The translations under genes were made by a program, and so were the position numbers. The notes beneath the pieces were generated by a model. That model had not been told where the DNA came from. It saw only the letters and a program-made list of their open reading frames with translations, and searched no databases. A DNA stretch of 47,884 nt from Escherichia phage ZL19: the sequence record OM258170, one strand, 5' to 3'. Of the stretch, positions 4,330 through 20,275 are shown piece after piece (the stretch's first letter is position 1; each line of letters begins with the position of its first letter).

Positions 4330-4380
4330 CGAGCCTAAAACGAATTCTAACGAACTATAATTTAAGTAAGGTGATTCATC

Positions 4381-4506: not shown

Positions 4507-4655
4507 GCTTCACTGAATATGTTATCGCATGCGAGAGGTTGGTTTTCGATATGAAGACTTTCCACTGGTTCGTCATTAAGGATTTGATTAAGCCTTATAA
4601 GCAGGGCGTGACACCTGAGGCATTTATCAAGAGCTTCTATAGCACTAAAAGCTAA
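4503..4655 (+). CDS. small ORF (50 aa)
   Basis: Coupled to upstream ORF; 3' end overlaps promoter palindrome. Confidence 0.3.
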   Translation: MSFTEYVIACERLVFDMKTFHWFVIKDLIKPYKQGVTPEAFIKSFYSTKS

Positions 4656-4682
4656 ACGCAGTCGCCACGGATGGCATATAAT
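4640..4682 (+). promoter_or_regulatory. palindrome-type promoter module (variant TAGCACTAAAAGCTA)
   Basis: Motif 4640-4654, CCACGGATGGC box, -10 TATAAT 4677-4682. Confidence 0.5.
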
Positions 4683-4712
4683 TACCCAATCAACACAGCG
4701 AGAGATTGAGAA

Positions 4713-4949
4713 ATGTTCGGACTAAATGACGCATACTTCAACGCAGTTAAGCGACAGGCTGACAAGCTAAACGATGAGTACAGCAAATTGGGAGTAAAGA
4801 AGAAAGATGATAAGGTTGTGGCTGCACTGATCACACAGGTTTGGGGCCCGGTATCAACACTTATCGCTCGCGATAAATTTGTGTGGATTGCTGGTTATCG
4901 AAAGGGTCGAGTTGGTCATGACGAGAATGGGAATAGCCTTTATGAATAA
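4713..4949 (+). CDS. hypothetical protein (78 aa)
   Basis: ORF downstream of promoter module with GAGAGA RBS. Confidence 0.45.
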   Translation: MFGLNDAYFNAVKRQADKLNDEYSKLGVKKKDDKVVAALITQVWGPVSTLIARDKFVWIAGYRKGRVGHDENGNSLYE

Positions 4950-5127
4950 TTGTAAGCACCACTATTACTACGCATACGAGTCGAAAGTGGAGAAGTCTGA
5001 CATTGATGGGCTTAAACATGGATGGGCTGACACAACTGCGCCATGTATCTTCGTAGGAATGAAAATGGCATTCTACGTTTGCAGTAAGTGCTACAATATA
5101 CTTATCGCGGAGAGGCTAGGTAAATGA
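4942..5127 (+). CDS. hypothetical Cys-containing protein (61 aa)
   Basis: Track ORF 4879..5127 trimmed to ATG overlapping upstream stop; start uncertain. Confidence 0.35.
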   Translation: MNNCKHHYYYAYESKVEKSDIDGLKHGWADTTAPCIFVGMKMAFYVCSKCYNILIAERLGK

Positions 5128-5210
5128 GCGAGTTAACAATCTGGTTTATCGCAGGGCTGATTACTTGGGGTTACTTTTTAATCGCTTAGATGGAGATTGT
5201 CAAAAAGAGC

Positions 5211-5239
5211 TTGCATCACTGACCGGAATTACCTAATAT
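5211..5239 (+). promoter_or_regulatory. sigma70-like promoter TTGCAT-17-TAATAT
   Basis: Hexamers with 17-nt spacer upstream of a ~180-nt non-coding stretch and the tRNA. Confidence 0.45.
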
Positions 5240-5422
5240 TGACCACGTAGAAGACAGCCATCCAAGATGGAACGGCGCACGGAGCGCACTACACGGTAAG
5301 TCCGTTGCTCATTAAGTAGCGTATGCGGCACACCCTTACGGGACTTGCAAGACCTAGCGCAAATAGGCAGATTAACCGGCTGTATCAGGCAGCCCCGGAG
5401 CCGTAACCGGGACTCATTCAAA

Positions 5423-5500
5423 GCTCTGCTAGCTCAACAGGATAGCAGCAACGACCTTCTAAGTCGTAGGTTACTGGTTCGAATCCAGTGCGGAGCGCCA
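5423..5500 (+). tRNA. tRNA-Arg (anticodon UCU), CCA encoded
   Basis: 7-bp acceptor stem GCTCTGC/GCGGAGC, anticodon stem ACGAC/GTCGT with loop CTTCTAA, T-arm ACTGG-TTCGAAT-CCAGT, GG in D-loop; D-arm atypical (3-bp stem, long loop). Confidence 0.7.
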
Positions 5501-5514
5501 ATAAAGGAGTCATT

Positions 5515-5697
5515 ATGTGGGATGTGAAGTTGTCCATTCGCTTAATGGGCCGCTCGTGCAAGAATTGCACTCAAGATTACATCGCGTCAGTTGCCGCAAT
5601 CAGCGCTGAGGATGCGGTAGCGAAAGTAAAGGAGTTGTCGGGCGCTGACCCTGATACCCACAAATTCCTGGTAGCTTACGTTCGTGAGCGAAAGTAA
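5515..5697 (+). CDS. hypothetical protein (60 aa)
   Basis: ATG with AAAGGAG RBS just after tRNA; track ORF 5488 starts at GTG inside the tRNA. Confidence 0.4.
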   Translation: MWDVKLSIRLMGRSCKNCTQDYIASVAAISAEDAVAKVKELSGADPDTHKFLVAYVRERK

Positions 5698-5740
5698 AAA
5701 GTGTTATACCCTCGTTAAGTTTCGTTTCTCTCGTTGTTTT

Positions 5741-5764
5741 AGCCCTCGCTTGAGGGCTTTTTTC
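5741..5764 (+). terminator. intrinsic terminator
   Basis: AGCCCTC-GCTT-GAGGGCT hairpin followed by T-run. Confidence 0.65.
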
Positions 5765-5773
5765 GACTGCATG

Positions 5774-5802
5774 TTGACAATAATATGTAGGTGCATTAGT
5801 AT
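5774..5802 (+). promoter_or_regulatory. sigma70-like promoter TTGACA-17-TAGTAT
   Basis: Consensus -35 with 17-nt spacer, 47 nt upstream of ATG 5844. Confidence 0.6.
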
Positions 5803-5843
5803 TAACTCATCGGGGCGACCCACTAACCAGAAGGAGATTCAAA

Positions 5844-6047
5844 ATGATGACATTAAAGGCAGTATACAAAGATGGCAGTGAGCAGATTATAGAAGTTAAA
5901 AGAGTTGGCTACGCTCATGGGTCTAGACTTGTTGACTTCGTTGATTGCGATGGACCCGGCCAGTTCTTCATGGAGGACCGCGTCTTGTCTGTTTATGTGA
6001 TGAATTCAGCCGGCAGCACAGTTGGGAAATACCAACTAGCGGAGTGA
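5844..6047 (+). CDS. hypothetical protein (67 aa)
   Basis: ORF with AAGGAG RBS. Confidence 0.45.
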   Translation: MMTLKAVYKDGSEQIIEVKRVGYAHGSRLVDFVDCDGPGQFFMEDRVLSVYVMNSAGSTVGKYQLAE

Positions 6048-6056
6048 GTTGCCACC

Positions 6057-6081
6057 AAGCCCCTTAATTGGGGCTTTTTTA
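6057..6081 (+). terminator. intrinsic terminator
   Basis: AAGCCCC-TTAATT-GGGGCTT hairpin plus T6. Confidence 0.65.
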
Positions 6082-6125
6082 CGCCTGTAATATGGTATAA
6101 TCTACCATCAACAAAGGAGGATTAA

Positions 6126-6632
6126 ATGAGCAAAGCAGCATTAAAGATGGGTGAGGGAAATTTCAAGGCGCTCTACAACAAGAAGTATGGCGACATTGCT
6201 ATGGTGGCAATCAACCGCAAGTACACGCCTGAGGAAGTTTTTGACTTCGCTGTTCGATACTTCTCTTGGGCAGAGAGTGAGGCAATCAAGGCTATTGAGA
6301 CGGCAGCATTCCAGGGGGTTGTTGGTGAAAGCCTCGTACATAAACCGCGAGTATTCACCTTGACGGGGCTTGCGCTCTTCATGGGTGTTAATATCAATAG
6401 ATTCGCTCGCTGGCGCACTGAGGCTGGATACTCTGATGTTATGGAATTCATTGATAACGTAATCTACGAGCAGAAATACCAACTTGGCGTTGCAGGCATT
6501 ATCAACTCCACCATCGTTGGTAAAGAGCTTGGCATTGATAAGCCACAGGAGATTACCATCAGTAATAACTCTACAGCTAACGACGTTGATAGCATGAAGG
6601 AAGCACTGGAATCTGTGATTGGTAAATTATAA
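6126..6632 (+). CDS. terminase small subunit (putative)
   Basis: Directly upstream of TerL; motifs TLTGLALFMGV and GVAGIINSTIVGKELG resemble small-terminase family. Confidence 0.6.
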   Translation: MSKAALKMGEGNFKALYNKKYGDIAMVAINRKYTPEEVFDFAVRYFSWAESEAIKAIETAAFQGVVGESLVHKPRVFTLTGLALFMGVNINRFARWRTEAGYSDVMEFIDNVIYEQKYQLGVAGIINSTIVGKELGIDKPQEITISNNSTANDVDSMKEALESVIGKL

Positions 6633-6651
6633 CAATAAGAGGGTATAACAC

Positions 6652-8217
6652 ATGTCTTTAGTATGGGAAGAAATGACCATTCAGGAAAAGATGGCCGTCA
6701 AGGCGATATCAGAACACAGCTTCGAGGGCTTTCTTCGCTGCTGGTTCCAAATCACACAAGGCGAGCGATACATCCCTAACTGGCACCACAAATATCTATG
6801 CCGAATTATCGACGAGATTATAGCAGGGGAGCGAAAGGACACCATCATCAACATAGCGCCGGGTAGTGGAAAGACGGAAATCGCTTCAATTCACTTTCCG
6901 GCCTACTCTATGGTTAAGTTAAAGAAGGTTCGCAACCTTAACATCTCTTTTGCCGACTCACTGGTTAAGCGCAACTCCAAGCGCGTACGTGACCTCATCA
7001 AGTCTCAAGAATTTCAGTCACTCTGGCCATGTAAGTTTGGCACTTGCAAAGACGATGAGCTTCAGGTTCTTGATGAGAGTGGCAAGGTGAGATTTGAGTC
7101 AATCTCGAAAGCGGCTGGTGGTCAGATTACTGGTGCTCGAGGTGGGTACATAACTGAAACATATAGCGGCGCGGTTTTGCTGGATGATTTTGACAAGCCC
7201 GCCGATATGCTATCAGCAGTGTACCGCTCGAATAATCACGTAATGCTAAAGAACACGATTCGCTCACGTCGCGCTAGCTCTGTAAAAGGAAAGGCGACAC
7301 CAATAATTTCGATACAGCAGCGACTGCACGTCAATGACTCAACGTATTTCATGATGGAAGGCGGTATGGGTATCGACTTTGACTTGATTAAGATACCTGC
7401 GCTAGTTACTGAGGATTACATAGATTCGCTTCCTGACTGGATTAAAGAACAGTTTGCGGAAGACGTATTAAGCAGTGAGTGCATTGAGCGAGATGGCGTA
7501 AAGTACTACAGCTACTTTCCTAAAAAGGAGTCAGTAAACGACCTTGTTGCGATGTGGGATAGTGACCCGTACACTTTCCTTAGTCAATATCAGCAGGAAC
7601 CTGTAGCACTAGGTGGAAACCTCATTAATGTGGATTGGTTCCAGCGAATCAGCGATACTTTCAGACCTCCAGCTAAGTATGACTATAGATTCATCACATG
7701 CGATACCGCGATGACTACAAAGAGTTATAGTGACTTCTCTGTGCTTCAACTGTGGGGATATAAGGATGCTAAGATTTACCTTATAGACCAGCGTCGAGGC
7801 AAATGGGAGGCGCCTGAGTTGGAGGCGGAACTACTGGACTTCGAGAGGAAATCAAGGGCAACCAGTCAGGTAGATGGCATCCTACGAAAAATCATCATCG
7901 AGAAGAAATCATCCGGAATCGGACTTATTCAGTCGGCAGGCAGAGTGATGAGAACGCCGATAGAGCCATACGTACCTGATAACGACAAGCTAACCAGGGT
8001 AATGAGCGCACTGCCACAGATTAAGGCTGGCAATGTAGTTCTTCCAGAATCAGCGCCGTGGTTAAGCGGATTGCTCACGGAGATTGCAGCTTTTACGGCA
8101 GATGATAGCCACAAACACGATGACCAAATTGACTGTCTAACAATGGCAGTAAACCTTGTTCTCAATATCGCAGATGATCCTAAGTCCAGATTAATGCGCA
8201 TAGCGGGAATTAAATAG
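6652..8217 (+). CDS. terminase large subunit
   Basis: 521 aa, Walker A APGSGKT, C-terminal nuclease-like region, position before portal. Confidence 0.85.
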   Translation: MSLVWEEMTIQEKMAVKAISEHSFEGFLRCWFQITQGERYIPNWHHKYLCRIIDEIIAGERKDTIINIAPGSGKTEIASIHFPAYSMVKLKKVRNLNISFADSLVKRNSKRVRDLIKSQEFQSLWPCKFGTCKDDELQVLDESGKVRFESISKAAGGQITGARGGYITETYSGAVLLDDFDKPADMLSAVYRSNNHVMLKNTIRSRRASSVKGKATPIISIQQRLHVNDSTYFMMEGGMGIDFDLIKIPALVTEDYIDSLPDWIKEQFAEDVLSSECIERDGVKYYSYFPKKESVNDLVAMWDSDPYTFLSQYQQEPVALGGNLINVDWFQRISDTFRPPAKYDYRFITCDTAMTTKSYSDFSVLQLWGYKDAKIYLIDQRRGKWEAPELEAELLDFERKSRATSQVDGILRKIIIEKKSSGIGLIQSAGRVMRTPIEPYVPDNDKLTRVMSALPQIKAGNVVLPESAPWLSGLLTEIAAFTADDSHKHDDQIDCLTMAVNLVLNIADDPKSRLMRIAGIK

Positions 8218-8257
8218 CACTAATTGCTAAACATTGAGGCCACGGATGGCGTATATT
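8215..8257 (+). promoter_or_regulatory. palindrome-type promoter module
   Basis: TAGCACTAATTGCTA 8215-8229 overlapping TerL stop; CCACGGATGGC; -10 TATATT 8252-8257. Confidence 0.5.
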
Positions 8258-8288
8258 TACCTTACACAAACGAGAGGAGAAAAGACAA

Positions 8289-8645
8289 ATGGCACGCACT
8301 TCAAAGGCTGTATATCTTGGCAACAACGATGATGTGTATTATGGCTTCACCGTAGGTAAGGAATATGAGATTGTATCGTATACTGATGATGACCTCATTC
8401 TGATCGTTGATGATGATGGCGAATGCCGTGGCATCAATAACGGGGCATTCCACAAGTTCGAACTCTCAGTAACAGAATGCGCAGCCGCAGCCACTGGCAA
8501 TAATAAAAGACCGGATCTCAGATATTACATAAACGGGCATGAGGTTGACATGATTGAGTTCGAAAATGTGCGCTATAAGGTGGATCAGCTTGATGAGGAT
8601 GGCGTAAAATGCGACACAATAAAGTTCGAGGTAAAATTCGAGTAA
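8289..8645 (+). CDS. hypothetical protein with internal duplication (moron-like)
   Basis: Own promoter module and terminator, inserted between TerL and portal; acidic D/E-D-G-x-x-C repeat. Confidence 0.45.
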   Translation: MARTSKAVYLGNNDDVYYGFTVGKEYEIVSYTDDDLILIVDDDGECRGINNGAFHKFELSVTECAAAATGNNKRPDLRYYINGHEVDMIEFENVRYKVDQLDEDGVKCDTIKFEVKFE

Positions 8646-8666
8646 CCACAAAAGCTATGATAAACT

Positions 8667-8689
8667 AGCCCCTACATGGGGCTTTTTTA
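8667..8689 (+). terminator. intrinsic terminator
   Basis: AGCCCC-TACAT-GGGGC hairpin plus T6. Confidence 0.65.
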
Positions 8690-8701
8690 TTGGAGAAAAA
8701 C

Positions 8702-9970
8702 ATGGTCAAGACAGACAGCTACGCCAATATCTTTCTCGGCGGTAGTGATGGTAGTGAGATTTACGGGAGCTTGCAGAACCAGGCTCCTACAATTCTGGCT
8801 TCGCTATATGCGGACAATGCTCTGGTGCGTCGAATTATCGACACAATCCCGGAGACAGCATTGGCGGCAGGATTCCATATTGACGGCATTGATGACGAAC
8901 CTGCATTCTGGTCGAGATGGGATGATTTGGAGATGACGCAGAATATCAACGATGCCTGGTCATGGGCCAGATTGTTCGGTGGGGCTGCTATTGTCGCTAT
9001 CGTCAAGGACAATAGAGCATTAACAAGCCCCGCCAGGGAAGGCGCTGAGCTTGAAACCGTTCGCGTTTACGACCGCACTCAAGTGAAAGTTCAGACTCGC
9101 GAGGAGAATCCGCGCAACGCACGTTTTGGTAAGCCATTAACCTATCGCATCACAACTAATGAGAGCGATATGTTCTATGATGTTCATTACAGCCGCATTC
9201 ATATCATCGATGGCGAGCGAATCCCTAACGTAATGCGTCGGCAAAATGACGGCTGGGGCCGTAGCGTTCTATCCAGTGACATTCTTGACTCAATCAAGGA
9301 TTACACCAACTGTGAACGACTTGCTACGCAATTACTGAAACGTAAGCAGCAAGCGGTATGGAAAGCCAAAGGTCTGGCTGAACTGTGTGATGATAGCGAA
9401 GGATTTGGTGCAGCAAGATTACGCCTGGCCCAGGTTGACAACAATAGCGGTGTTGGTCAGGCGATTGGCATTGACGCAGAATCTGAAGAGTACAGCGTTC
9501 TAAACTCTGATATTGGCGGCATCGACGCGTTTCTGGATAAGAAGTTCGATAGAATCGTTGCTCTGAGCGGCATTCATGAAATCATCCTGAAGAACAAGAA
9601 CGTTGGAGGGGTATCATCAAGCCAGAATACGGCACTGGAGACATTCCACAAGCTGGTTGACCGCAAGCGCAATGCTGAGTTGCTCCCTATTCTTGAGTTC
9701 TTGATCCCGTTCATCGCGAACGCAGAAGAGTGGTCAGTTGAGTTTAATCCGTTGGCTCAGGAATCAAGCAAGGATAAGGCCGAGATTCTTGAGAAGAACG
9801 CAAACAGCATTGCGGCACTAATTGCGGCAGGCGCTATGGATATCGACGAGGCTCGTGATACACTACGAACTATAGCCCCAGAGGTTAAGATCAATGATGG
9901 TTCAGTAGAGACAAAGGTGACAATTAGTGAAACCAGTAACGACCCGTTGGAAGTACCCACAGACAATTGA
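8702..9970 (+). CDS. portal protein (putative)
   Basis: ~420 aa ORF after TerL; track ORF starts at TTG 8690, ATG 8702 has GGAGA RBS. Confidence 0.65.
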   Translation: MVKTDSYANIFLGGSDGSEIYGSLQNQAPTILASLYADNALVRRIIDTIPETALAAGFHIDGIDDEPAFWSRWDDLEMTQNINDAWSWARLFGGAAIVAIVKDNRALTSPAREGAELETVRVYDRTQVKVQTREENPRNARFGKPLTYRITTNESDMFYDVHYSRIHIIDGERIPNVMRRQNDGWGRSVLSSDILDSIKDYTNCERLATQLLKRKQQAVWKAKGLAELCDDSEGFGAARLRLAQVDNNSGVGQAIGIDAESEEYSVLNSDIGGIDAFLDKKFDRIVALSGIHEIILKNKNVGGVSSSQNTALETFHKLVDRKRNAELLPILEFLIPFIANAEEWSVEFNPLAQESSKDKAEILEKNANSIAALIAAGAMDIDEARDTLRTIAPEVKINDGSVETKVTISETSNDPLEVPTDN

Positions 9971-10655
9971 GAGCCAGGTTAACCGCAATCTCAGTATTGC
10001 GGTAACTGAGTTAATTTCGGCAATGAGGGAGTCTGCAACAAGGCTTAAAATTGATACTGCAGATGAGCTTGAGGAAGAGGATGGATACCTTGACGGGATA
10101 ATTGCGGCGCTGGTGGCGTCATTTATATCAACCATCCCAGCTATAGGGGCAGCAATATACAGATACAATAGTTCGCAATTTCTTGTTCTTGCAATCAAGA
10201 CTGGAGGGAGATCTAATCCTAGCGTTCTAGACCTTGAATTTAACGGAATAAATGGCGATGAGCCGTGGTATAATGATGACCTCAAGAAGTGGATTTACAC
10301 CACGGATAAGTCAGCCAGAAAACTGCTAAACAACATCAAGGATGATTTCTTACAGACGGCTGCAACAATACAGAATGGTGACTACGTTAAGCTATCTGAC
10401 AGGTACAAAATCTACAGGAAGCGAACAGCAAACATTGCTTCTGGGATTGTTTCAAGCCTAAACTCGACACTCATGAGGCGCAGGCTTGAGGATGCTGGTG
10501 TTAGCCGCTATATCTGGCATGGCATGCTAGATGAGAGGGAGCGCCAATCACACATAGCAAGAGAAGGCCTTAGCTTTAAACTTGGTGGGGCAGATATATT
10601 TCCGGGCCAAGAGTACGGCTGTCGTTGCTGGTCAGTTCCAGATTGGGAATCATAA
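9927..10655 (+). CDS. head morphogenesis protein (Mu F / SPP1 gp7-like)
   Basis: C-terminal DERERQSHIA-type motif; overlaps portal 3' end; GTG start. Confidence 0.6.
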   Translation: MKPVTTRWKYPQTIESQVNRNLSIAVTELISAMRESATRLKIDTADELEEEDGYLDGIIAALVASFISTIPAIGAAIYRYNSSQFLVLAIKTGGRSNPSVLDLEFNGINGDEPWYNDDLKKWIYTTDKSARKLLNNIKDDFLQTAATIQNGDYVKLSDRYKIYRKRTANIASGIVSSLNSTLMRRRLEDAGVSRYIWHGMLDERERQSHIAREGLSFKLGGADIFPGQEYGCRCWSVPDWES

Positions 10656-10668
10656 TAGGAGAGTTTAA

Positions 10669-11757
10669 ATGAGTAAAATCCGCTATGACAGCGCAAAGTT
10701 TAAGGCAACAATCGACGAGAATGGATTCTTAGTCGACACACCAGTAGTCGCACGTCTCGGCGTGCAAGTCTACTACATGGAGGACGGTCGCACCGTTCGA
10801 GAGTTTCGTCCAGCAGAGGAGGTTTTCAAGTATGAGTCTCTGGCAAGTTACCAGGGCAAGCCAATGACGCTGGACCACGTCTTCGTTAACTCGGAGAATG
10901 CTAAAGACGTAGTGGTAGGTTCCGTTACTGGCAAGGCTGAACCATTGGGTAGCTCGGTCGTTGCTCCGATTGTTGTTTACGACAACACGGCCATTCAGGA
11001 AGCTATGGCAGGTAACGCCAAAGAGTTATCGGTTGGGTACTCCGCAGTTCTTGATGAGACCCCTGGCTGGGGCGACCCTATTACTGGCGAGTATGTACTT
11101 AAATCTGATGGTGAGCAATTCGATGCGCCTGAAGGATGGCAGGAGTTCGACGCAATTCAGCGTGACATTAAAGTTAACCATCTCGCAATGGTATATCGCG
11201 GTCGCGCAGGTATTGCCAAATTGAATATGGACGGTGAGCAGGAAAACCCGTATACTACTGACGTTGATATCAATAAAGAGGATAAACAGGAAATGACAGT
11301 TAAAATTAAACTCGACGGCGCGCAGGAATTTGAAGTCGCACCGGAAATCGCTTCTCACATCGAAGCGCTGAACGCAAAGGCTGACACTGCAATCGCAGAA
11401 CGCGATGCACTGAAAGCTAAAGTAGATGCAATCCCCTCTGAAATCGAGGCTGCTGTTGCTAAAGCGAAAGCTGATGCTGATGCTCTGGCTGCTCTGGTTG
11501 CTGTTGCTGCTGAAGCTGGTGTGAAAGCTGATGGTCTGGACGCTAAAGGCATCAAGATTGCTTACGTTAAAGAAGTCTCCGGCCTTGATGTTGCTGAGAA
11601 ATCTGACGCGTACATCGACGCAGCGTTCGACATTGCCAAAGAATCTGATAAAATGGCTGAAGTACGTAAAGCGACTACCGCTTCCGACAAATCTGACAGC
11701 GCCGATGAGCCTAAGAAATTAGACCCGCGTGCTCGTTTAGCTAAAATCAAGAAATAA
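10669..11757 (+). CDS. scaffolding protein, possibly with N-terminal prohead-protease-like domain
   Basis: C-terminal Ala/Lys/Glu-rich coiled-coil; N-terminal ~200 aa globular region; position before capsid gene. Confidence 0.5.
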   Translation: MSKIRYDSAKFKATIDENGFLVDTPVVARLGVQVYYMEDGRTVREFRPAEEVFKYESLASYQGKPMTLDHVFVNSENAKDVVVGSVTGKAEPLGSSVVAPIVVYDNTAIQEAMAGNAKELSVGYSAVLDETPGWGDPITGEYVLKSDGEQFDAPEGWQEFDAIQRDIKVNHLAMVYRGRAGIAKLNMDGEQENPYTTDVDINKEDKQEMTVKIKLDGAQEFEVAPEIASHIEALNAKADTAIAERDALKAKVDAIPSEIEAAVAKAKADADALAALVAVAAEAGVKADGLDAKGIKIAYVKEVSGLDVAEKSDAYIDAAFDIAKESDKMAEVRKATTASDKSDSADEPKKLDPRARLAKIKK

Positions 11758-11769
11758 GGAGTTATAAAC

Positions 11770-12249
11770 ATGGCAATTCGTTCTGTAGCACTCGCTGGTA
11801 TGATTTCTGATACCTCTCTGTATAACATCGACGGCGCATGTGTAGTTGGCGGCACTACTGCAATTCCAGTTGGGACTGTTGTTGGTGCGTCAGTGCCTGC
11901 TGATGAGCGCCTGGCTGGTCACAAGGTGATTGCAGCCACTGGCATCACTGCTGATAATGTTTACGGTGTGGTTGTTCGCTCTCATTACGAGACTCCTGAT
12001 GGGGCTGCTAAACCGCAAGAAGCTGTTAACGTGATGACACATGGTCGAATCTGGGTTCGCACCAGCCTTACTGCCGCGCCTACATTTGGTGCCCCAGTTC
12101 TTGTATCTGCCACTGGACTGGTTGAATCAGCAGGTGCAGTTGAGACTGGTTGGACTTTTGCAGGTGGTTACATCGCAAACACTGGCACAGACCCACAAAA
12201 CCTGAGCGTTGATGGCGCCCTGGTTGAAGTTCAGGTCAAGCAGAAGTAA
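11770..12249 (+). CDS. head structural/decoration protein (putative)
   Basis: Gly/Ala/Val-rich 159-aa ORF between scaffold and capsid genes. Confidence 0.4.
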   Translation: MAIRSVALAGMISDTSLYNIDGACVVGGTTAIPVGTVVGASVPADERLAGHKVIAATGITADNVYGVVVRSHYETPDGAAKPQEAVNVMTHGRIWVRTSLTAAPTFGAPVLVSATGLVESAGAVETGWTFAGGYIANTGTDPQNLSVDGALVEVQVKQK

Positions 12250-12266
12250 ATATTAAAGCTAAATTA

Positions 12267-12290
12267 AAGCCTCCTTCGGGAGGTTTTTTA
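12267..12290 (+). terminator. intrinsic terminator
   Basis: GCCTCC-TTCG-GGAGGT hairpin plus T6. Confidence 0.65.
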
Positions 12291-12614
12291 TTACCCATAA
12301 TCTGTTAGACTTATTATGTCTATTAACCAATCAGGAGATTAAGATGGATAGCGAATTAAGAGCAGCGCCCTAACACTTGGCGCCAGCTCTGCAGGACTTG
12401 GCTTGAGGACCGTTCACTACACGATAAAAGAGTGGGGTTCAAGATACATAGTGGAAATAGATATAACTCAACATGGAAGGGTTGGTGATTCTTCAATCCC
12501 AATTCAGGTAAGGATGGCATCTTATAAGTACTAACAAAGAGCCCACCATTGCGTGGGCTAAAAACTCGTGTATAATGAATCCGTAAACACATAACCGAAA
12601 AGGAACAACAAAGA

Positions 12615-13559
12615 ATGGCCATTAAATTTGATGCAGAACAAGCAAAAATCACCGCTCACCTCGAGCAAATGGGCGTAGAGAAAGCCGACGCCGCTGGTAT
12701 CTGGACTGTTAAGCAGCTTACCGCAACTCTGAATCGTGCTTACGAAAAAGAGTATGCAGACAATTCTGTTGTTAATATCTTCCCTGTAACCAATGAAATT
12801 CCTGGTCACGCGAAGTATTTCGAATACCCAGAGTTTGATGGTGTTGGTATCGCGCAGATTATCGCTGATTACTCTGATGACCTGCCGCTGGTTGATGCTT
12901 TCATGACCGAGAAACAAGGTAAAGTGTTCCGTTTCGGTAACGCATTCCTGATTTCTACTGATGAAATTAAAGCAGGCGCTGCAACTGGTCAGCCTCTGTC
13001 AGCTCGCAAGCAGGCACTGGCTTTCGAAGCGCACGACAACCTGCTGGATAAACTGGTTTGGTCTGGTTCCGCTCCCCACGGTATCGTAAGCGTATTCGAT
13101 CAGCCGAACATCAACAACGTTGTCGCAACACCAGACTGGAGTGCCCCGCAGAACGCAATTAATGACGTTACCGCAATGATTGACGCAGTTGAGACTTCAA
13201 CTCAGGGCTTCCATCATGTAACTGACATTCTGCTTCCGGCATCTGCCCGTCGAGTAATGCAGCGCCTTGTTCCGAATACAACTCTGAGCTACGGCGAGCT
13301 ATTCACTCGTAACAACCCAGGTATGACCATTCGTTTCATGCAGTTCCTGGACAACTACGATGGCGCAGGTGGTAAAGCTGCTCTGGCGTTTGAGAAGGAT
13401 CCGCTCAATATGTCCATTGAGATTCCAGAGGTTACCAACGTACTTCCGGCCCAACCTAAAGATCTGCATTTCCGCTACCCTGTAACATCAAAGGCTACAG
13501 GATTGATTGTTTATCGTCCGCTGACGATGGCTGTAATCAAAGGCATCACCTTTGCATAA
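12615..13559 (+). CDS. major capsid protein (putative)
   Basis: 314-aa ORF with GGAACAACAAAGA RBS, positioned after scaffold and followed by strong terminator. Confidence 0.65.
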   Translation: MAIKFDAEQAKITAHLEQMGVEKADAAGIWTVKQLTATLNRAYEKEYADNSVVNIFPVTNEIPGHAKYFEYPEFDGVGIAQIIADYSDDLPLVDAFMTEKQGKVFRFGNAFLISTDEIKAGAATGQPLSARKQALAFEAHDNLLDKLVWSGSAPHGIVSVFDQPNINNVVATPDWSAPQNAINDVTAMIDAVETSTQGFHHVTDILLPASARRVMQRLVPNTTLSYGELFTRNNPGMTIRFMQFLDNYDGAGGKAALAFEKDPLNMSIEIPEVTNVLPAQPKDLHFRYPVTSKATGLIVYRPLTMAVIKGITFA

Positions 13560-13563
13560 TAAA

Positions 13564-13588
13564 TCGCCCTCTTCGGAGGGCTTTTTTA
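13564..13588 (+). terminator. intrinsic terminator
   Basis: GCCCTC-TTCG-GAGGGC hairpin plus T6. Confidence 0.7.
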
Positions 13589-13651
13589 CGCCTGTACCAA
13601 ATGGAATTGTTGGGTTATAATCACCCAATCAGATAAACAAAGGAGACAAAG

Positions 13652-13897
13652 ATGATTAGTTTAGAACACACTGGTGCTTGCCTTATCGTTTACAAGGGTG
13701 AGAAATATTTGCCTGGTGACACTTTCGAGGTTGACGTAATTTGCGACGGCCTTAAGCGTTTAATCGCAGAGGGCAAGCTCACTATCGAAGGTGACGCCAA
13801 AACAACCAAGCAGATCGCGCAAGAAGTTATTAGCAAGAAAAAGCGCAAAGAACCGAAAACTATCTCCGAAGCTGAGACCGGTAACGAGTACAAATAA
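13652..13897 (+). CDS. hypothetical protein (81 aa, Lys-rich C-terminus)
   Basis: ORF with AAAGGAGA RBS. Confidence 0.4.
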   Translation: MISLEHTGACLIVYKGEKYLPGDTFEVDVICDGLKRLIAEGKLTIEGDAKTTKQIAQEVISKKKRKEPKTISEAETGNEYK

Positions 13898-13902
13898 CAA
13901 AC

Positions 13903-13922
13903 AGGGCGCTTCGGCGTCCTTT
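13903..13922 (+). terminator. intrinsic terminator (weak T-run)
   Basis: AGGGCGC-TTCG-GCGTCCT hairpin. Confidence 0.45.
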
Positions 13923-13938
13923 ATTGTATGGAGCTAAT

Positions 13939-14340
13939 ATGAATGATGAAATCTTGGCGTTTATGCGATCGCTTGTTCCTGCGCTCAAGGCAGTGGATGA
14001 TGAATCAATTAATGTGTGGATCGATTTGGCGCGTCTCTACGTATGTGCGGATAAGTTTGGTAATGATGCAGATCGCGCTGTGGGCCTTTATGCACTACAC
14101 CTGATGCTTTCTGATGGCGCATTTAAGGGGGAGAATGAAGGCTTGGAAACATACAGTCGTAGAATGGCAAGTTACGCACTGAGCGGTGAGTTCTCTATCA
14201 CTTATGATAATCAATCAGCAATCCAGGGTGACTTATCATCTTCCTCTTGGGGTCGCATGTACAAGGCACTTCTCCGCAAGAAAGGCGGCGGATTTGGATT
14301 GATTACTTCCGCTGCTGGCGGTGGGTGCGGTTGCCGATGA
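13939..14340 (+). CDS. head-tail connector/adaptor protein (putative)
   Basis: Track ORF 13924 starts at TTG; ATG 13939 after GGAG; position after capsid. Confidence 0.45.
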   Translation: MNDEILAFMRSLVPALKAVDDESINVWIDLARLYVCADKFGNDADRAVGLYALHLMLSDGAFKGENEGLETYSRRMASYALSGEFSITYDNQSAIQGDLSSSSWGRMYKALLRKKGGGFGLITSAAGGGCGCR

Positions 14341-14708
14341 ACTACAATGAAATCGAATCAATCACTCGCGCTGGCATTAACTTCTTTAGTGATGCCAATG
14401 GCGTTTACGAGATGAGCACTGGCGCTGGGTATGTTGAAATCGTTAACGGAGTTGAGGTTGAGGTTCCAGCAAGAAAATTCCAACTAAAGGGTTTGGTGCG
14501 AGAGATCAAGACTCGCGATATCGATGGCGAGTTTATCCAGTTTGGCGATAAGCGCGGAATCTTCACGGCCCAGGTAGAAATCAAGCAGGGTTATCAGATT
14601 AAAGTCGATGGTGAGACTTTTGTTGTTGTTGACCCGCGCCCCGTTAAACCAACAGGGACGACTGTTGGTTATCGTCCGATTCTTCGCAGGGTGGCTACTT
14701 ATGGCTAG
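14337..14708 (+). CDS. head-tail joining protein (putative)
   Basis: ATGA overlap with upstream gene; track ORF 14247 trimmed. Confidence 0.4.
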   Translation: MNYNEIESITRAGINFFSDANGVYEMSTGAGYVEIVNGVEVEVPARKFQLKGLVREIKTRDIDGEFIQFGDKRGIFTAQVEIKQGYQIKVDGETFVVVDPRPVKPTGTTVGYRPILRRVATYG

Positions 14709-15138
14709 AAACATGGGGAGTGTAGTTACGTTTGAGAAATCTATTGCTGACTGGATTGACAGAGCGGAGGATGGTTTTGGGATTGTGGTATCCAATACGG
14801 TTATCAAGACAGCAAACGCAATTGTTGACCTTTCACCCGTCGATACCGGCAGATTCAAGGCTAACTGGCAAATCTCCGCAAACTCACCAGCTCAGCAGTC
14901 ACTCAATGAGTACGACCAGACTGGCGGCCAGACCAAAACATATCTCGCCAGACAGGCTAGAGCGGTTGCCAACTCAAAAGCTACAAGTGTTATTTATATC
15001 ACCAATCGACTTGATTACGCGGTCGACCTTGAATACGGAGCTTCAAGCCAGGCTCCAGCTGGCGTTTTAGGTGTGGTGCAAGCAAGGCTGGGTAGGTATT
15101 TCCAGGAAGCAGTAGAGGAGGCTCGCCGTGCAATATGA
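14701..15138 (+). CDS. neck/tail component (putative)
   Basis: Track ORF 14608 trimmed to ATG overlapping upstream stop. Confidence 0.4.
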   Translation: MARNMGSVVTFEKSIADWIDRAEDGFGIVVSNTVIKTANAIVDLSPVDTGRFKANWQISANSPAQQSLNEYDQTGGQTKTYLARQARAVANSKATSVIYITNRLDYAVDLEYGASSQAPAGVLGVVQARLGRYFQEAVEEARRAI

Positions 15139-15529
15139 ATTATCATTAGCAGCAAGGAAATTCGTCAACGATTTGTTGGTAAATGAATTTCCTGTCAGAT
15201 ATCCAGTTGCTTGGGAGAACGCTGCCTTTGCGCCTCCTGCGGACGGCTCAATCTGGCTTAAGTACGACTACACAGAAGTTGACACAGTAACATACGGGTT
15301 AAGCAGGAAGTGCAAATACTACGTTGGCATGGTGCAGATTTCAGTGTTCTTCAGTCCGGGGACTGGGATTGATAAGCCGAGACAAATAGCTAATCAATTG
15401 GCAGAATCTATCGTTGATGGTACAATGCTTGACAGCGGGACCATTTATGAGTCTGGAGTTGTTAACCCGGTTATCAAATCCAAGTCTGGGTGGTTTATCC
15501 CGGTTCGTTTTTATGTTCGTCTAGACTAA
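15128..15529 (+). CDS. tail completion/terminator protein (putative)
   Basis: 133-aa ORF overlapping upstream gene, precedes major tail gene. Confidence 0.4.
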   Translation: MQYELSLAARKFVNDLLVNEFPVRYPVAWENAAFAPPADGSIWLKYDYTEVDTVTYGLSRKCKYYVGMVQISVFFSPGTGIDKPRQIANQLAESIVDGTMLDSGTIYESGVVNPVIKSKSGWFIPVRFYVRLD

Positions 15530-15544
15530 CAAAAGGAAAAATAC

Positions 15545-16201
15545 ATGGCCCATCTCAGCAATGGCACGCAGGTCTTCGTAGAAGGCTCTCGCGGAGCTGC
15601 AATCGACGTAACTGCAATTTCTAACGCAGTTACCCCTGTTTTAACTGTATCTGACGCGTCTGGTTTGGTCGTTGGTGATTACCTGCTTTTCACCTCTTCT
15701 GCTTCAACGCTTCTAGCTGACAAGCAAGTTCGAGTGACTGCAATCACTGGTACGTCAGTAACTGTTGAAGGTATTGATACCTCCAGCACCACAAAGTTCC
15801 CGGCTGGCTTAACTGGTGAAGTTGTCAAGATCACCTCCTGGTTCGAAGTTCCGTGCGTTCAGGACGTATCTACTGACGGTGGCGAACAGCAATTCGTTAA
15901 CTTCCAGTGCTTGTCCGATGACCGCGAACAGCAGATTCCGACTTATAAATCTGCGGTAACAAACACCTTCACCTTTGCTCACGAGTACACCAACCCGGTC
16001 TATCCGGTTCTGCGTAAATACGATGAGTCTGGCCAGGTTGTCGCGATTCGTCTGTTCGTACCTCGCGCTCAGGAAATGCGTTTGCAGTCCGGCACTATCG
16101 CTTTCAACGACACCCCTACCATTGGTGTTAACGAAATCGAAACGGTATCCATCGCAGTATCAATTCGTGGTCGCCTGTCCTCTGTGGCAGCTGAAGTTTA
16201 A
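15545..16201 (+). CDS. major tail protein
   Basis: 218-aa ORF with AAGGA RBS, followed by strong terminator, upstream of chaperones and tape measure. Confidence 0.6.
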   Translation: MAHLSNGTQVFVEGSRGAAIDVTAISNAVTPVLTVSDASGLVVGDYLLFTSSASTLLADKQVRVTAITGTSVTVEGIDTSSTTKFPAGLTGEVVKITSWFEVPCVQDVSTDGGEQQFVNFQCLSDDREQQIPTYKSAVTNTFTFAHEYTNPVYPVLRKYDESGQVVAIRLFVPRAQEMRLQSGTIAFNDTPTIGVNEIETVSIAVSIRGRLSSVAAEV

Positions 16202-16207
16202 AACACA

Positions 16208-16230
16208 AACCCTCTTCGGAGGGTTTTTTA
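16208..16230 (+). terminator. intrinsic terminator
   Basis: CCCTC-TTCG-GAGGG hairpin plus T6. Confidence 0.7.
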
Positions 16231-16235
16231 TTGCA

Positions 16236-16278
16236 TAGCACTTTTTGCTAAAGCACTTATTCAGCTTTACTGTATAGT
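16236..16278 (+). promoter_or_regulatory. palindrome-type promoter module
   Basis: TAGCACTTTTTGCTA 16236-16250; TG-TATAGT 16271-16278; CATCGAAACGAAATGAGAG leader. Confidence 0.55.
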
Positions 16279-16311
16279 TATCTCATCGAAACGAAATGAG
16301 AGATTAAAGAA

Positions 16312-16560
16312 ATGAATAACGTTAAAAACATCATCAAACTTGCTGCAGTTCTTGTTGCTTTTTATGCAGTAGTTCAGATTGTTAACCCAACTGGTGAGGC
16401 TGATGCCAATAGCAAGGCAAACAAATATACCGTTGAGTTCGCTAAAGCTGAGCGAGCATGTCAGGAGCTTGTGGGTAGTAAAGTTGACCAAATCATGAAA
16501 TATGGCAAAGAGGTCTGCAAGGACTCAGCTGCTAAGATTGCAAAAGAAAACACTAAGTAA
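16312..16560 (+). CDS. small secreted/membrane protein (moron-like)
   Basis: N-terminal hydrophobic segment; own promoter module between major tail and chaperone genes. Confidence 0.45.
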   Translation: MNNVKNIIKLAAVLVAFYAVVQIVNPTGEADANSKANKYTVEFAKAERACQELVGSKVDQIMKYGKEVCKDSAAKIAKENTK

Positions 16561-16599
16561 TAGAATACATACTCACAAACAATAAGAGGATTAACTAAG

Positions 16600-16914
16600 A
16601 TGGCTAAGTTCAAACTTTCACTGGCAGCACTCCCTGACTTCAAGCTTCCGGTAAAATTCAAGCTGGCTAACGACCAGGATGTAGAGGTTATCTTTACAGT
16701 CAAGCATAAGAAAACATCTGAGCTTCAGGAGCTTTTGCAGAAAGAAGACTTGAGTACTAAAGAATTGATTATGGCAATCGCCTCTGATTGGGATTTGGAA
16801 GAAGAATACAACGAGGATAACGTTAATGAGTTCTCCGACCTGTTCCCAGCGTCAACAGTTGCACTGACTACCGCTTACATGCAGGCACTGGCAGGCCAGC
16901 GGGTAAAAAACTAA
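16600..16914 (+). CDS. tail assembly chaperone (lambda G-like)
   Basis: Acidic 104-aa ORF immediately upstream of tape measure; ends at slippery site. Confidence 0.6.
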   Translation: MAKFKLSLAALPDFKLPVKFKLANDQDVEVIFTVKHKKTSELQELLQKEDLSTKELIMAIASDWDLEEEYNEDNVNEFSDLFPASTVALTTAYMQALAGQRVKN

Positions 16915-17234
16915 AGAGGGCGGTGTATCTACAGTACCAGTCAGATCCAACTGATGCCGAACTGGAAGCTATTGGGATGCGCCGCTCTGATTACGAAGAT
17001 GAAGAGCCTGAAGTTTTACACTTCGACGACAACATGATGAAGGCTTGGGACATTTATTGTTCAATGGCCACGCAATGGAGGGTTGGAGCTAACGGAGCTA
17101 CAGGGTTAGATTACAACGTGCTAAATTTCCTCTTTAGAGTGTATAATGTCTCAGAAGAAGAATTGGTGCTCAGTGATTTACGCATCCTTGAAGCTAAGGC
17201 TCTCGAGATGATGGATAATCTGAGAAAAAAATAA
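16600..17234 (+). CDS. tail assembly chaperone, frameshift-extended product (G-T-like)
   Basis: Predicted fusion of ORF 16600..16914 with -1 frame ORF ending 17234. Confidence 0.5.
16905..16911 (+). other. -1 programmed frameshift slippery heptamer A_AAA_AAC
   Basis: Heptamer 4 nt before G-frame stop; -1 frame is open from here through ORF 16923..17234. Confidence 0.6.
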
Positions 17235-17254
17235 CCCGCTTCGGCGGGTTTTCT
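17234..17254 (+). terminator. intrinsic terminator (short T-run)
   Basis: ACCCGC-TTCG-GCGGGT hairpin. Confidence 0.5.
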
Positions 17255-17269
17255 ATTATGGAGGCTTAG

Positions 17270-20245
17270 ATGGCAACAAATGAATTAGCCGGAATCACAC
17301 TAGCCGTAGACGTCTCGCAGGTAGACAGAGGTACACAGTCCCTGCGGAAGTTCAGGCAGGCAAACCAGCAGGCCGCTTCCGGCATTAGTGAGTTCGTCAA
17401 CGCCGAGCAGGTTGCAAAGAATCAAGCCAGAGACACAGCTCGCGCACTGGCTGAACAGCAATCATCTTTGGCTAAATTGCAAACGGCTATTGACCCAACT
17501 GCGGCAAAGTTCCGTAAACTCCAGGAGGCTGCTGTAGGTCTTGATAAGGCTTTCGCGGCTGGAGTAGTTCCTGATGAGGAGTTTTTCCGCTTAGGTGAGG
17601 CGCTTGAAACGCAGAACGCAAAACTTGCTCGTTCACGTGCGGCACTAACTGAAGAGGGTAGAGCGGCGGCGCAAGCTGCAAAGGATAAGGCAAAGGCAAA
17701 GGCTGAAGCGGATAGATTCATTGCATCACTTGAGCGTCAGGCTCAGGCGGCAACATTGACGCGAGAGGAGTACCTAAAGTTACAAGCGGCCCAGCTTGGC
17801 GTAAGTTCTCAGGCGGCGCCTATTATTGACAGAATCGCCGATGTATCACGGAAGGCAAACACCCAGCTAATTGCTCAGAGCAAGGCCTTTCAACGCTCTG
17901 GCTTAAGCGCAGGTCAATACAAGGCTGCAATCTCTCAATTGCCAGCGCAGATTACAGATATTGGGACATCACTTGCTGGCGGCATTCCGATTTGGCTTAT
18001 TGCAATTCAGCAAGGTGGACAAATTAAGGATGCATTTGGAGGTATTGGTAACACATTTAGTTTTGCGCTTGCTGCTTTAAACCCGTTCAACGTAGCAGTT
18101 GGGGTTCTCGGTGGCGCGCTTGTTGCTTTAGGCGTCGGTGCTGCGCAGGCTGAAAGTGAATTCAGGGCGTTAAACTCCGCCATTGCGTTCTCAAACAACT
18201 CCACAATCGCATCAATCTCGCAGGTTAGAGAGTTGGTTAGCTCTGTTTCTGATGCCACTGGTGCAACCAGAGGACTTGTGACTAGCATCGCAACAAGCCT
18301 TGTTGAGCAAGGAAACCTTACGCTAACGCAGATTGACAAGATTACTAAATCAACAGCCAGATGGGCTCAGTTGACAGGTAAGGATGCAAAGGAAATTACT
18401 GGTTACTATAACCAGATTGCGAGCGACCCAATTCAAGGACTTGCTGATTTAGACAAGAGGTTTAACTTCCTTACACAGGGGCAGTTAACAACAATTGAAA
18501 GATTGAGGGAGACTAGGGGTGAGGTTGAAGCCGTAACTGCTGCTATTGATATATTTAGCAAATCACAAGAGGCAAACCTTAACGATATTGCAGCCCAGCT
18601 TACTCCTCTTGAATTGGCCTGGAATGACTTCAGGAAGTACATATCTGATGTATGGGATGCAATTAGTCGCAGAACGGTTGGGGCGCTAAACCTGTTTGTT
18701 GACGTAATCGCCGGAACAATTGAGCAAATTAGGGTCTTCATCAACCAGGGTGATGTGCTGATTGGTGAATTCGTAATTAGCGCAACACAGGCACTGCAGA
18801 ACATCCCCGGCCTTGATGGTGTTGGTGATGATGTTGTCAAGGGACAGCAGAAGATTATCGATGCCGCTAAGAAGCAAAACATTGAGCTAGAGAAGTCTAT
18901 CAAGGAGCGCGATGCCAGAATCAGAGAAGGAGAACTTGGCTACGTTACTCGCAGAGAAAATCAGAATACCAATGAGCAGTCAGGCACGGATGAGGAGTTT
19001 GCAAAAAGGAAGAAAGCGCTTCAGGATGAACTTGATGCGATCAAGAAGAGCAGGAAAGAAGAAAATGGTAGGGTTAAAGAGCAAAGAGACCTTACAATTG
19101 GTTACGAATCTGGCGTACTTGCACTACAGGCACAACTCAAGGTGCTTCAGGAAAACAGGGATATTGGCGCAGTAATAAGCAATGAGCGCAAGCAGTATCT
19201 TCAGGAGGTTGCAAAATTCCAGATTCTTGAGCAAAGGCAGCGTGATGGCTCAATAAAAAAAGAGCAAGCAAGACTTCTCATTGAAAAGGATAAAGTTCTT
19301 GAGTTGGCCAGGCAGAAGGCTGAGCTAGGTGATCAGATTGTTTTGCAAGAAAGAGCCAATAAGTTGGCTGAAGATAACCGCAAGAAGATTCTTCAGATTA
19401 ACAATGAGGCAAGCAATATTGATTTGGGTACTGGATTATCATCTCGTGAACTGCAAAGAGCCAAAGAGATTCAGGCTCTTCAGTCCAATCAGGTCAATGC
19501 TGGTGGCTCTCTTGATGACGTTGATTTTCAGCAGCTACTGGAAGCAAGACGTAACTTTTATGCCCAGGAGGATGCGCTACGTGAAAACTGGCTCGCTGGT
19601 GTGAATCAATCCTTTGCCAATTGGGCTGAGAGCGCGACGGATGCATTCTCAATTGCTGGAAGTTTAACCACAACAGTCTTTGAAGGCATTACCGACCAGA
19701 TTACAAACCTCGTAACAACTGGCGAAACAAACTTCAGAGAGTTTACTGTTAGCATCCTTAAACAGATTGCTAAGATTGCAACCCAACTTCTTATTGTTAA
19801 GGCTATAGAGTCTAGCTTAAGTAGCTTCGGTGGTACTGGTGGCGCTATTGGTTCAATTTCTTCAGGTCTTGGTTTCGCTGGCGGCGGCTACACTGGTAAT
19901 GGCGGGAAATACCAACCAGCAGGTACTGTACATAAGGGTGAGTTTGTATTCACAAAAGAAGCGACTAGCAGAATTGGTGTTAAGAACCTTTACGCACTAA
20001 TGAAGGGATACGCAAACGGTGGCGCTGTAGGTGGTCCATCTGGTTATGCTAATGGTGGCTATGTTTCCGGCGGCTCGGATATTAATGTTAGTGGCATCAC
20101 TGTTAACGTTAATGGTGGCGTTGGTAGCGACCCAGAACAAGCTAAGGCGCTGCAAAGCGGAGTCAGGGCTATCGTAGCAGAGGAGATTGCTCAGTCCTTC
20201 CAGCAGGGCGGAAAAGCTTATCAGTACCTTCGCGGATTCAACTAA
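17270..20245 (+). CDS. tail tape measure protein
   Basis: 991 aa, Ala/Gln-rich coiled-coil with Gly-rich C-terminus, GGAGG RBS. Confidence 0.85.
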
Positions 20246-20275
20246 TTAACGGGGCTTTGGCCCCTAAGGATTTTT

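Follow-up and report, generated by a model that had tools for sequence, protein, structure and literature searches.

Comparison of the spacer between the cement and major capsid genes of Escherichia phage ZL19 with the corresponding region of its relatives indicates that this 324 bp interval is almost certainly a deletion scar, the pseudogene relic of an accessory virion gene for a collagen-like fibre. The stretch analyzed (sequence record OM258170, 47,884 nucleotides, referred to here as the window) is the near-complete genome of an Rtp-like coliphage of the T1 family (Drexlerviridae, Braunvirinae, Rtpvirus), and its head-gene block at 4170–20221 has 99.3% identity with that of Escherichia phage vB_EcoS-IME253 (IME253). 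The slot in question is bounded on the left by a capsid cement/decoration gene (11770–12249, + strand, with its stop codon at 12247–12249), a homologue of rtp26 that matches Pfam PF22758 Phage_cement (E = 4e-27) and whose product is 100% identical to IME253 gp40 and 93.8% identical to Rtp rtp26. On the right it is bounded by the major capsid gene (12615–13559). An earlier note made from the letters of this DNA alone had correctly read the capsid ATG at 12615, and had seen no credible gene at 12291–12614, offering a leader peptide or attenuator, a small RNA, or a decayed gene as explanations. It is the last of these that is borne out, as relatives have a conserved gene of 478–506 aa in the slot, of which only the two ends, no longer in frame with each other, are left in the window. 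The note had pointed to comparison with related phages, and to a conserved gene at this position with frameshifts here as grounds for giving up the non-coding reading; a conserved slot gene is indeed found, although what disrupts it here is an internal deletion and not frameshifts. There is thus no intact gene in the spacer, as the note held, but it overlooked a 60-codon + strand frame at 12352–12534 that is a C-terminal fibre relic. Its view that the minus-strand ORFs are spurious stands; those at 12356–12652 and 12558–12917 have no PHROG or Pfam match and overlap the start of the capsid gene.

The left end of the interval is occupied by an intrinsic terminator (CCTCC-TTCG-GGAGG followed by T6; 12267–12290, + strand) that begins 17 nt past the cement gene stop. 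The hairpin lies at 12270–12283 and the T run at 12284–12289, which agrees with the placement in the earlier note, and folding gives a dG of -12.3 kcal/mol (z = -2.6 against shuffled sequences). The terminator is invariant in all aligned relatives, and an equivalent is annotated in the ETEP102 and CEB_EC3a records. With its G+C-rich hairpin and T run at a gene end, it is the predicted Rho-independent terminator of the cement gene, and represents functional context outside of the relic.

The sequences to the right of the terminator correspond to the start of a gene. In Rtp the cement-capsid spacer is only 113 bp and the terminator is joined almost directly to the capsid promoter, whereas the window and IME253 have approximately 253 extra bp. 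A DNA search shows that the first ~75 bp of these match the start of a gene situated immediately upstream of the major capsid gene in AugustePiccard (bas01_0010, 478 aa), RobRod40 (CDS0008, 478 aa) and e4/1c (gp11, 506 aa). The segment 12267–12365, spanning the terminator, leader, Shine-Dalgarno (SD) sequence, ATG and seven codons, is 90–95% identical to the 5′ end of the fibre gene in these three phages; by blastn it is 95% identical to AugustePiccard (positions 1039–1138 of locus L005), and the nucleotide homology to the AugustePiccard 5′ end runs out at 12365. Alignment with the same three phages identifies 12291–12343 (+ strand) as the 5′ leader of the lost gene, including the SD sequence AGGAG at 12333–12337, six nt ahead of the ATG at 12344. 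Codon alignment then identifies the N-terminal relic (12344–12365, + strand), consisting of the ATG and first seven codons, in which 21 of 22 nt are the same as in bas01_0010 and the residues are M-D-S-E-L-R-A as compared to MASELRA in AugustePiccard and IME253.

The leader itself is well conserved. The block at 12301–12343 (TCTGTTAGACTTATTAnGTCTATTAACCAATCAGGAGATTAAG) is near-invariant among phages that still carry the fibre gene, and across the Braunvirinae and Rogunavirinae it is better conserved than the neighbouring coding sequence, the capsid genes being 80–91% identical. It contains the inverted repeat TAGAC-N7-GTCTA, one pair of which is broken in RobRod40 with no compensation, and the block might serve the intact fibre gene as a regulatory element.

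The other end of the gene is recognizable primarily by its translation. The + strand frame at 12352–12534, which includes a 43-aa ORF starting with TTG (12403–12534), is open for 60 codons, a length matched by only 1.6% of composition-matched shuffles. BLASTP, tblastn, phmmer and codon alignment place the C-terminal relic at 12366–12534 (+ strand), comprising the last ~55 codons and the original TAA. There are several lines of evidence. First, the translation, ending …LTLGASSAGLGLRTVHYTIKEWGSRYIVEIDITQHGRVGDSSIPIQVRMASYKY and stop, aligns without gaps to the family C-terminus, …LFLGNSPVALGLRELTITLKEWGDRTLTTIKAIHHGRSGDTTRPLQITMFSNKY and stop, with 26 of 55 residues (47%) identical to AugustePiccard residues 423–477 (E = 1e-15, pairwise BLASTP), and the TAA at 12532–12534 is shared with the AugustePiccard fibre gene. 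Second, tblastn finds the family with E = 4e-6 against 2.3 Gb of phage DNA, and E = 1e-7 to phage JS10. Third, although the 158 bp between the two blastn matches have no DNA match to AugustePiccard, RobRod40 or e4/1c, nucleotide identity to AugustePiccard at the successive codon positions is 54/65/33%, a signature of divergence under protein-coding constraint. Fourth, all 15 of the 15 columns invariant in the family alignment are retained. What remains represents the last 55 residues of a ~130-aa C-terminal domain (ending ...HGRxGD..P....M.S.KY and stop), the first ~75 residues having been deleted.

The closest match to the relic comes from metagenomic data. An exhaustive phmmer search of 1.84 billion proteins, the only one of the searches to turn up this allele, yielded a 116-aa protein (P0002) that is 91% identical (E = 1.8e-25), as well as full-length DUF1737-collagen proteins such as P0006 (466 aa, E = 9e-9). 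P0002 aligns to positions 394–515 of the 519-position PHROG 5073 profile, and is encoded on two short ENA contigs with a progenitor-like allele (L014, which is ERZ28614107 scaffold_131761, and L015; the second ENA record is ERZ15185863 NODE_305660). The two are identical over their overlap, and on them the 3′ half of a gene for a collagen fibre is followed by the start of a capsid gene; L014, at 1.4 kb, ends short of the 5′ end of the fibre gene. Between the window (12369–12534) and L014, 154 of 166 nt (92.8%) and 50 of 54 aa (93%) are identical. The fibre gene of L014 is likewise interrupted, with an in-frame TGA at 330–332 (GGT GAT ACC TGA CCG CAG; the same in L015) at a position that should be a Gly codon in the G-X-Y repeat, and this TGA-carrying sequence is found in assemblies from two samples. 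The TGA may be a true nonsense mutation, a read-through site or an error common to both assemblies. Three giant proteins of 1,700–3,200 aa (P0001, P0003 and P0004) each match relic residues ~9–44 between 7 and 15 times at ~34% identity, and a relationship may thus exist between a repeat unit of these large proteins and the motif at the C-terminus of the fibre family.

Profile searches of the spacer gave no matches. Neither the relic translation nor the stand-alone 43-aa ORF has a PHROG or Pfam match, and a word-indexed protein search with the 57-aa relic gave no candidate. There is no G-X-Y run in any frame of 12291–12614 and Pfam finds no Collagen domain (PF01391) there, nor does the spacer translation match Pfam DUF1737, only seven codons of the N-terminus being left. 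One reading of the open frame is that the relic is partly alive, with the 43-aa product from TTG 12403 or a similar C-terminal fragment, or the 9-aa peptide described below, being made and functional; in addition to the frame being stop-free for 60 codons and the retention of all 15 invariant family residues, there is an AGGA at 12393–12396, six nt ahead of the TTG. We regard this as very improbable. The GGC TTG AGG that would contain the start codon encodes a Gly-Leu-Arg that family members have as an ordinary, conserved internal stretch, which makes the 'start' incidental; an open frame is equally expected of a recent deletion, and there is the lack of any PHROG or Pfam match as a stand-alone protein. 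Moreover, the fragment is only about 44% of the ~130-aa domain and would hold only its last three strands, the domain being all-beta in an AlphaFold2 model of P0002 that is of low confidence (pLDDT 55.6, from a 7-sequence alignment) and too poor for a fold search.

The architecture of the intact gene makes clear how much has been lost from the scar. Intact relatives have an N-terminal Pfam DUF1737 domain of ~100 aa that scores above the gathering threshold (26.7 and 31.6 bits against 24), followed by Collagen (E = 1e-29 to 1e-35) and then the family-specific C-terminal domain. The PHROG 5073 fibre genes of AugustePiccard, RobRod40 and e4/1c share with the window the same slot, terminator, leader, SD, ATG, first seven codons, stop and 3′ hairpin, but in the window the two ends are out of frame and codons ~8 to ~423 are gone; the C-terminal part also belongs to a diverged allele, at the 47% amino acid identity to AugustePiccard and 93% to P0002/L014 given above. 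Relative to the intact genes of 1434–1518 nt, approximately 1.24–1.33 kb is missing, a loss that covers the entire DUF1737 domain and every collagen repeat and extends through the first ~60% of the C-terminal domain.

When the window is set against both AugustePiccard and L014, the deletion junction falls at a 5-nt AGCAG (12361–12365, + strand). This sequence is common to the N-terminal donor (…AAGAGCAG/TAACC, the slash marking the boundary) and the C-terminal donor (…ACTAGCAG/C…). In the junction alignment the N donor reads …GAATTAAGAGCAG/TAACC…, the C donor …CAACTAGCAG/CCTAGCACTTGG… and the window …GAATTAAGAGCAGCGCCCTAACACTTGG…, the window having one extra GCC codon relative to L014. A breakpoint within the shared AGCAG points to microhomology-mediated illegitimate recombination, and this is probably the mechanism, judged from L014 as the closest allele rather than the exact progenitor. 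The common ancestor of the window phage and IME253 would have carried a ~1.4–1.5-kb gene between the cement and major capsid genes, whose product began with DUF1737, continued as a long run of collagen G-X-Y repeats and ended in a C-terminal beta domain of ~130 aa. A single illegitimate recombination, probably across AGCAG, would have taken out ~1.24–1.33 kb, starting at codon 8 and sparing the last ~55 codons ahead of the stop; the progenitor would be expected to have …AAGAGCAGT… at codon 7 and, near codon -56, …AGCAGCGCCCTAACA…. The survivors would be the leader, SD, ATG and seven codons (12291–12365), fused out of frame to the last ~55 codons and stop (12366–12534), and then the 3′ hairpin of the gene. 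That the C-terminal frame is still open suggests that the deletion is recent.

Such a deletion also accounts for the 9-codon ORF (12344–12373, + strand; ATG GAT AGC GAA TTA AGA GCA GCG CCC TAA) that had attracted attention in the earlier note. The SD, the ATG and the nine codons are all as described there, with the stop at 12371–12373 and MDSELRAAP as the peptide. From the ATG at 12344 to the original fibre stop there are 191 nt, and because 191 mod 3 = 2, the ATG frame stops after nine codons; the C-terminal frame is -1 relative to the ATG, the two frames being one nucleotide apart, and no uninterrupted reading frame runs from ATG 12344 to the fibre stop. The 9-codon ORF is the old start codon reading over the deletion junction into a wrong-frame stop (GCG CCC TAA), an accident of the junction. 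Upon read-through of the terminator at 12267–12290, translation would probably begin from the intact SD and end nine codons later, without any designed role.

The one-nucleotide offset between the two pieces, with a hairpin (12359–12390) at the junction, could in principle be an arrangement for a programmed -1 frameshift, joining seven N-terminal codons to 55 C-terminal codons in a protein of ~63 aa. The likelihood of this is vanishingly small. The product would have neither DUF1737 nor a collagen region, and the hairpin is built from both donor sequences, whose arms met at the junction by chance. A search of the sole permissive window, 12352–12370 (CGAATTAAGAGCAGCGCCC), for a slippery heptamer of the form X_XXY_YYZ found none, and programmed frameshifting was rejected as a candidate.

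Downstream of the relic lie the elements that serve the capsid gene. The predicted promoter (12549–12576, + strand; TTGCGT, 16 nt, TATAAT) has its -35 at 12549–12554 and its -10 at 12571–12576, is invariant in six aligned phages, and is annotated in the SU57 record (BPROM) and in ETEP102; it falls under the threshold of our consensus scan because the -35 matches at only 3 of 6 positions. The TATAAT noted earlier is therefore present, but the TG at 12569–12570 directly abuts it (GTG-TATAAT), which is not the canonical extended -10 (TGnTATAAT). The capsid RBS, AAGGAA, together with the ATG, occupies 12600–12617 (+ strand), as found by sequence and alignment and as annotated at the equivalent place in SU57. 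Identity with the relatives resumes before these elements: 12524–12614 is 91–93% identical to the last 11 nt of the fibre gene plus the capsid promoter and leader of AugustePiccard, RobRod40 and e4/1c, and blastn extends this against AugustePiccard to 12524–12640 at 94%, taking in the last 11 nt of the gene, the intergenic region and the capsid start. A hairpin at 12540–12559 (AGCCCAC-CATTGC-GTGGGCT, + strand; dG -12.7, z = -3.3) follows the fibre stop in the gene-bearing relatives, and its 3′ arm overlaps the -35. It is intact in AugustePiccard, RobRod40, e4/1c and L014, and its left arm is absent in the gene-less Rtp, JeanPiccard and 12210III.

The short distance from a strong SD and ATG to a stop codon, upstream of a highly expressed gene, is also what is seen in attenuators of the Phe leader (RF01859) type, and translation of the 9-codon ORF might accordingly be supposed to control the downstream capsid gene. 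The hairpin at 12359–12390 (z = -2.1) overlaps the ORF stop, and there is a weak Phe_leader match (E = 1.5; 21 bits against a 55-bit threshold), which sits on the terminator and not on the ORF. Nonetheless, a leader peptide is very improbable. First, the SD, ATG and first seven codons are those with which the 478-aa gene starts in relatives. Second, the capsid promoter is 175 nt downstream of the ORF and is invariant also in phages that have no such ORF. Third, there is no + strand terminator in 12373–12615 and no terminator/antiterminator pair in either the MFE or centroid structure, so that the promoter-ORF-attenuator-gene order and alternative hairpins of the Phe leader are missing. Fourth, MDSELRAAP contains no run of regulatory codons. 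Finally, there is no conservation of the kind seen for Phe leaders: codon 2 differs (GAT or GCT) between the sole two carriers, and the ORF is not co-conserved with the capsid gene, as the leader of the capsid gene is retained in more than 100 relatives and the 9-codon ORF in IME253 alone.

A small RNA or a structured cis-acting RNA has similarly little chance of being what the spacer encodes. Its location between a terminator and a promoter would suit one, and two local hairpins (12359–12390 and 12540–12559) beat shuffled sequences, although the rest of the several short hairpins reported earlier do not. Folding of the whole 324 nt, the structure prediction that the earlier note had advised, gives nothing better than shuffles (z = -0.8) and so offers no help to a regulatory reading. 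In a search of 11500–13500 in E-value mode, Rfam returned only noise, with best scores of 13–21 bits against thresholds of 44–55, and the promoter/terminator consensus scan found no + strand site inside the relic and no promoter-like site in 12291–12540. Homology to a protein-coding gene accounts fully for the sequence, and the region is conserved in one other genome only: searches of 50,697 phage records, IMG/VR, GTDB genomes and JGI metagenomes gave IME253 and the window phage and no others. We thus return to the deletion scar, with the upstream terminator and the capsid promoter and RBS (12549–12617) as the predicted functional elements of the interval; these are also present in relatives that have no relic, and the relic itself would be without function.

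The scar has a very narrow distribution. IME253 has the identical junction, with one difference in 255 bp, which indicates that a single event occurred in a common ancestor. The only difference inside the relic is in codon 2, GAT in the window and GCT in IME253, as in the intact genes. These two genomes, ~99% identical here, are the only carriers. Neither INPHARED, IMG/VR, GTDB genomes nor JGI metagenomes contain the scar in any other genome, the search of phage records for relic sequence having covered 50,697 entries. Exact DNA scans found the relic interior in IME253 only, the conserved leader in e4/1c and IME253 only, and the junction not at all in the JGI metagenomes, and scans with back-translated patterns (IMG/VR, GTDB genomes and JGI metagenomes) returned IME253 alone.

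There are other points of comparison between the window and IME253. Across 10.5–15.5 kb there are nine differences, four of which (12586, 12591, 12596 and 12609) crowd into 24 bp of the predicted capsid 5′ UTR, with 0 in 480 bp of the cement gene and 1 in 945 bp of the capsid gene. At these four positions IME253 agrees with Rtp, AugustePiccard and e4/1c, and the window agrees partly with vB_EcoS-12210III and ETEP102; a small patch of recombination could account for the cluster, as could regulatory tuning. The window also lacks the HNH endonuclease gene that follows the tape-measure gene in IME253 (gp52, NC_047810 26530–27000), having only a 29-bp spacer there (20246–20274). Of the 105 differences in the 16-kb, 99.3%-identical block, 72 are within ~720 bp just upstream of this spacer, and this cluster (19500–20274) resembles the co-conversion tract of a homing endonuclease. 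A tRNA-Arg with anticodon TCT is present at 5423–5500 (+ strand) of the window, as is reported for other T1-like phages (PMC4070988).

The slot is variable among the wider family. Approximately 20 distinct Drexlerviridae carry such a fibre gene and most Rtp-like phages are without it, which marks the gene as accessory. In Rtp, JeanPiccard, 12210III and JulesPiccard the whole cassette is absent with the capsid promoter and RBS kept. The gene-less junction of the Rtp type (Rtp, JeanPiccard, SU57, CEB_EC3a and Veterinaerplatzvirus) has the same terminator, capsid promoter, RBS and ATG as the window, but these phages have a 106–121-bp spacer with no trace of the cassette, whereas the window keeps 253 bp of gene wreckage. 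In e4/1c (locus L006, 982–1068 and 2581–2666) the cassette lies between 4-nt direct repeats, CACC, with boundaries TTTTTTTACACC/TATAATC … GCCCACC/ATTGCG. In Rtp (L002, 1548–1666) and JeanPiccard the gene-less junction is TTTTTTTACACC/ATTGCG, and 12210III has the same boundary with a RobRod40-like left flank. An independent CACC-microhomology deletion was considered as the origin of the Rtp gene-less state and set aside, as gene-less phages with different left flanks share the boundaries and insertion fits equally well. ETEP102 (L004, OR979723) has in the same slot an unannotated ORF of 26 codons (MALNFKQITADTTYNLDNEDVKCDDN and stop; 1648–1728, + strand) behind AAAGGAGAG, where the record annotates a minus-strand 45-aa ORF instead. 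Over its first 19 residues this ORF shares 10 with the N-terminus of e4/1c gp11 (E = 0.008 in a tiny search space), and it may be an independent stub of the fibre gene.

Four states of the slot are therefore seen in addition to the intact gene: deletion (the window), a nonsense TGA (the metagenomic relative), a 26-codon stub (ETEP102) and clean absence (Rtp). The occurrence of several different lesions of the fibre gene in related phages suggests that it is readily lost. A further reading goes beyond this, in which the relic is not inert, the SD-driven 9-codon ORF or the 43-aa TTG fragment having been co-opted, for example to tune terminator read-through into the capsid gene, and the slot is an on/off hotspot of a repeatedly inactivated DUF1737-collagen head fibre. 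We consider this unlikely, but were the hotspot reading true, the pattern could arise from head fibres being selected against in some conditions.

As to what the intact gene encodes, it is probably a collagen-like fibre of the head, with DUF1737 as its anchor, and not a tail fibre, given that DUF1737 is a capsid-binding domain and that the gene is positioned among the head genes. In phage phi24B a cryo-EM preprint describes DUF1737 binding at the centre of capsid hexons (bioRxiv 10.64898/2026.04.10.717836). The phi24B protein gp84, a NanS-p esterase, has an N-terminal DUF1737 capsid-decoration domain as do the intact Drexlerviridae proteins, but its cargo is an esterase instead of a collagen fibre and beta domain, and the phage family and capsid also differ; in the window nothing of DUF1737 is left past seven residues. 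In phiA2-1 the same slot holds a 190-aa 'virion structural protein' (PHROG 1954) that has 28% identity to an N-terminal-domain query (tblastn E = 1e-4). PDB sequence searches with bas01_0010 and phiA2-1 GP03 matched collagen and the collagen region of BclA alone, and no entry matched their N- or C-terminal domains. Literature on Drexlerviridae and collagen, on IME253 and on phiEB49 contained nothing on the cement-capsid locus. The slot genes (L005 1117–2550 and L006 1066–2583, with homologues in Rogue1, JK06, C119, phiKP26, Sd1 and Sf12; PHROG 5073 / 22681) are labelled variously as 'tail fiber protein', 'collagen repeat protein' and 'DNA polymerase (I)'. The 'DNA polymerase' label is clearly wrong, as the DUF1737 N-terminus and the place among the head genes suggest a capsid-anchored fibre.

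As a pseudogene relic the scar is of an ordinary kind and derives from a known gene family, though it is new to annotation, as the IME253 record has no feature at the matching region. It explains the unannotated 365-bp gap in Rtp-like phages of the IME253 type, and while the direct value of this is small, it removes a false lead, in that the orphan SD-ATG mini-ORF here is a deletion scar and no regulator. The gene that belongs in the slot is widely mis-annotated as a 'tail fiber' or 'DNA polymerase', and its domain content and location suggest a capsid-anchored collagen-like head fibre. More broadly, the cement-capsid slot tolerates from 0 to 1.5 kb of cargo across the Drexlerviridae, and is thus a natural permissive site for phage engineering.
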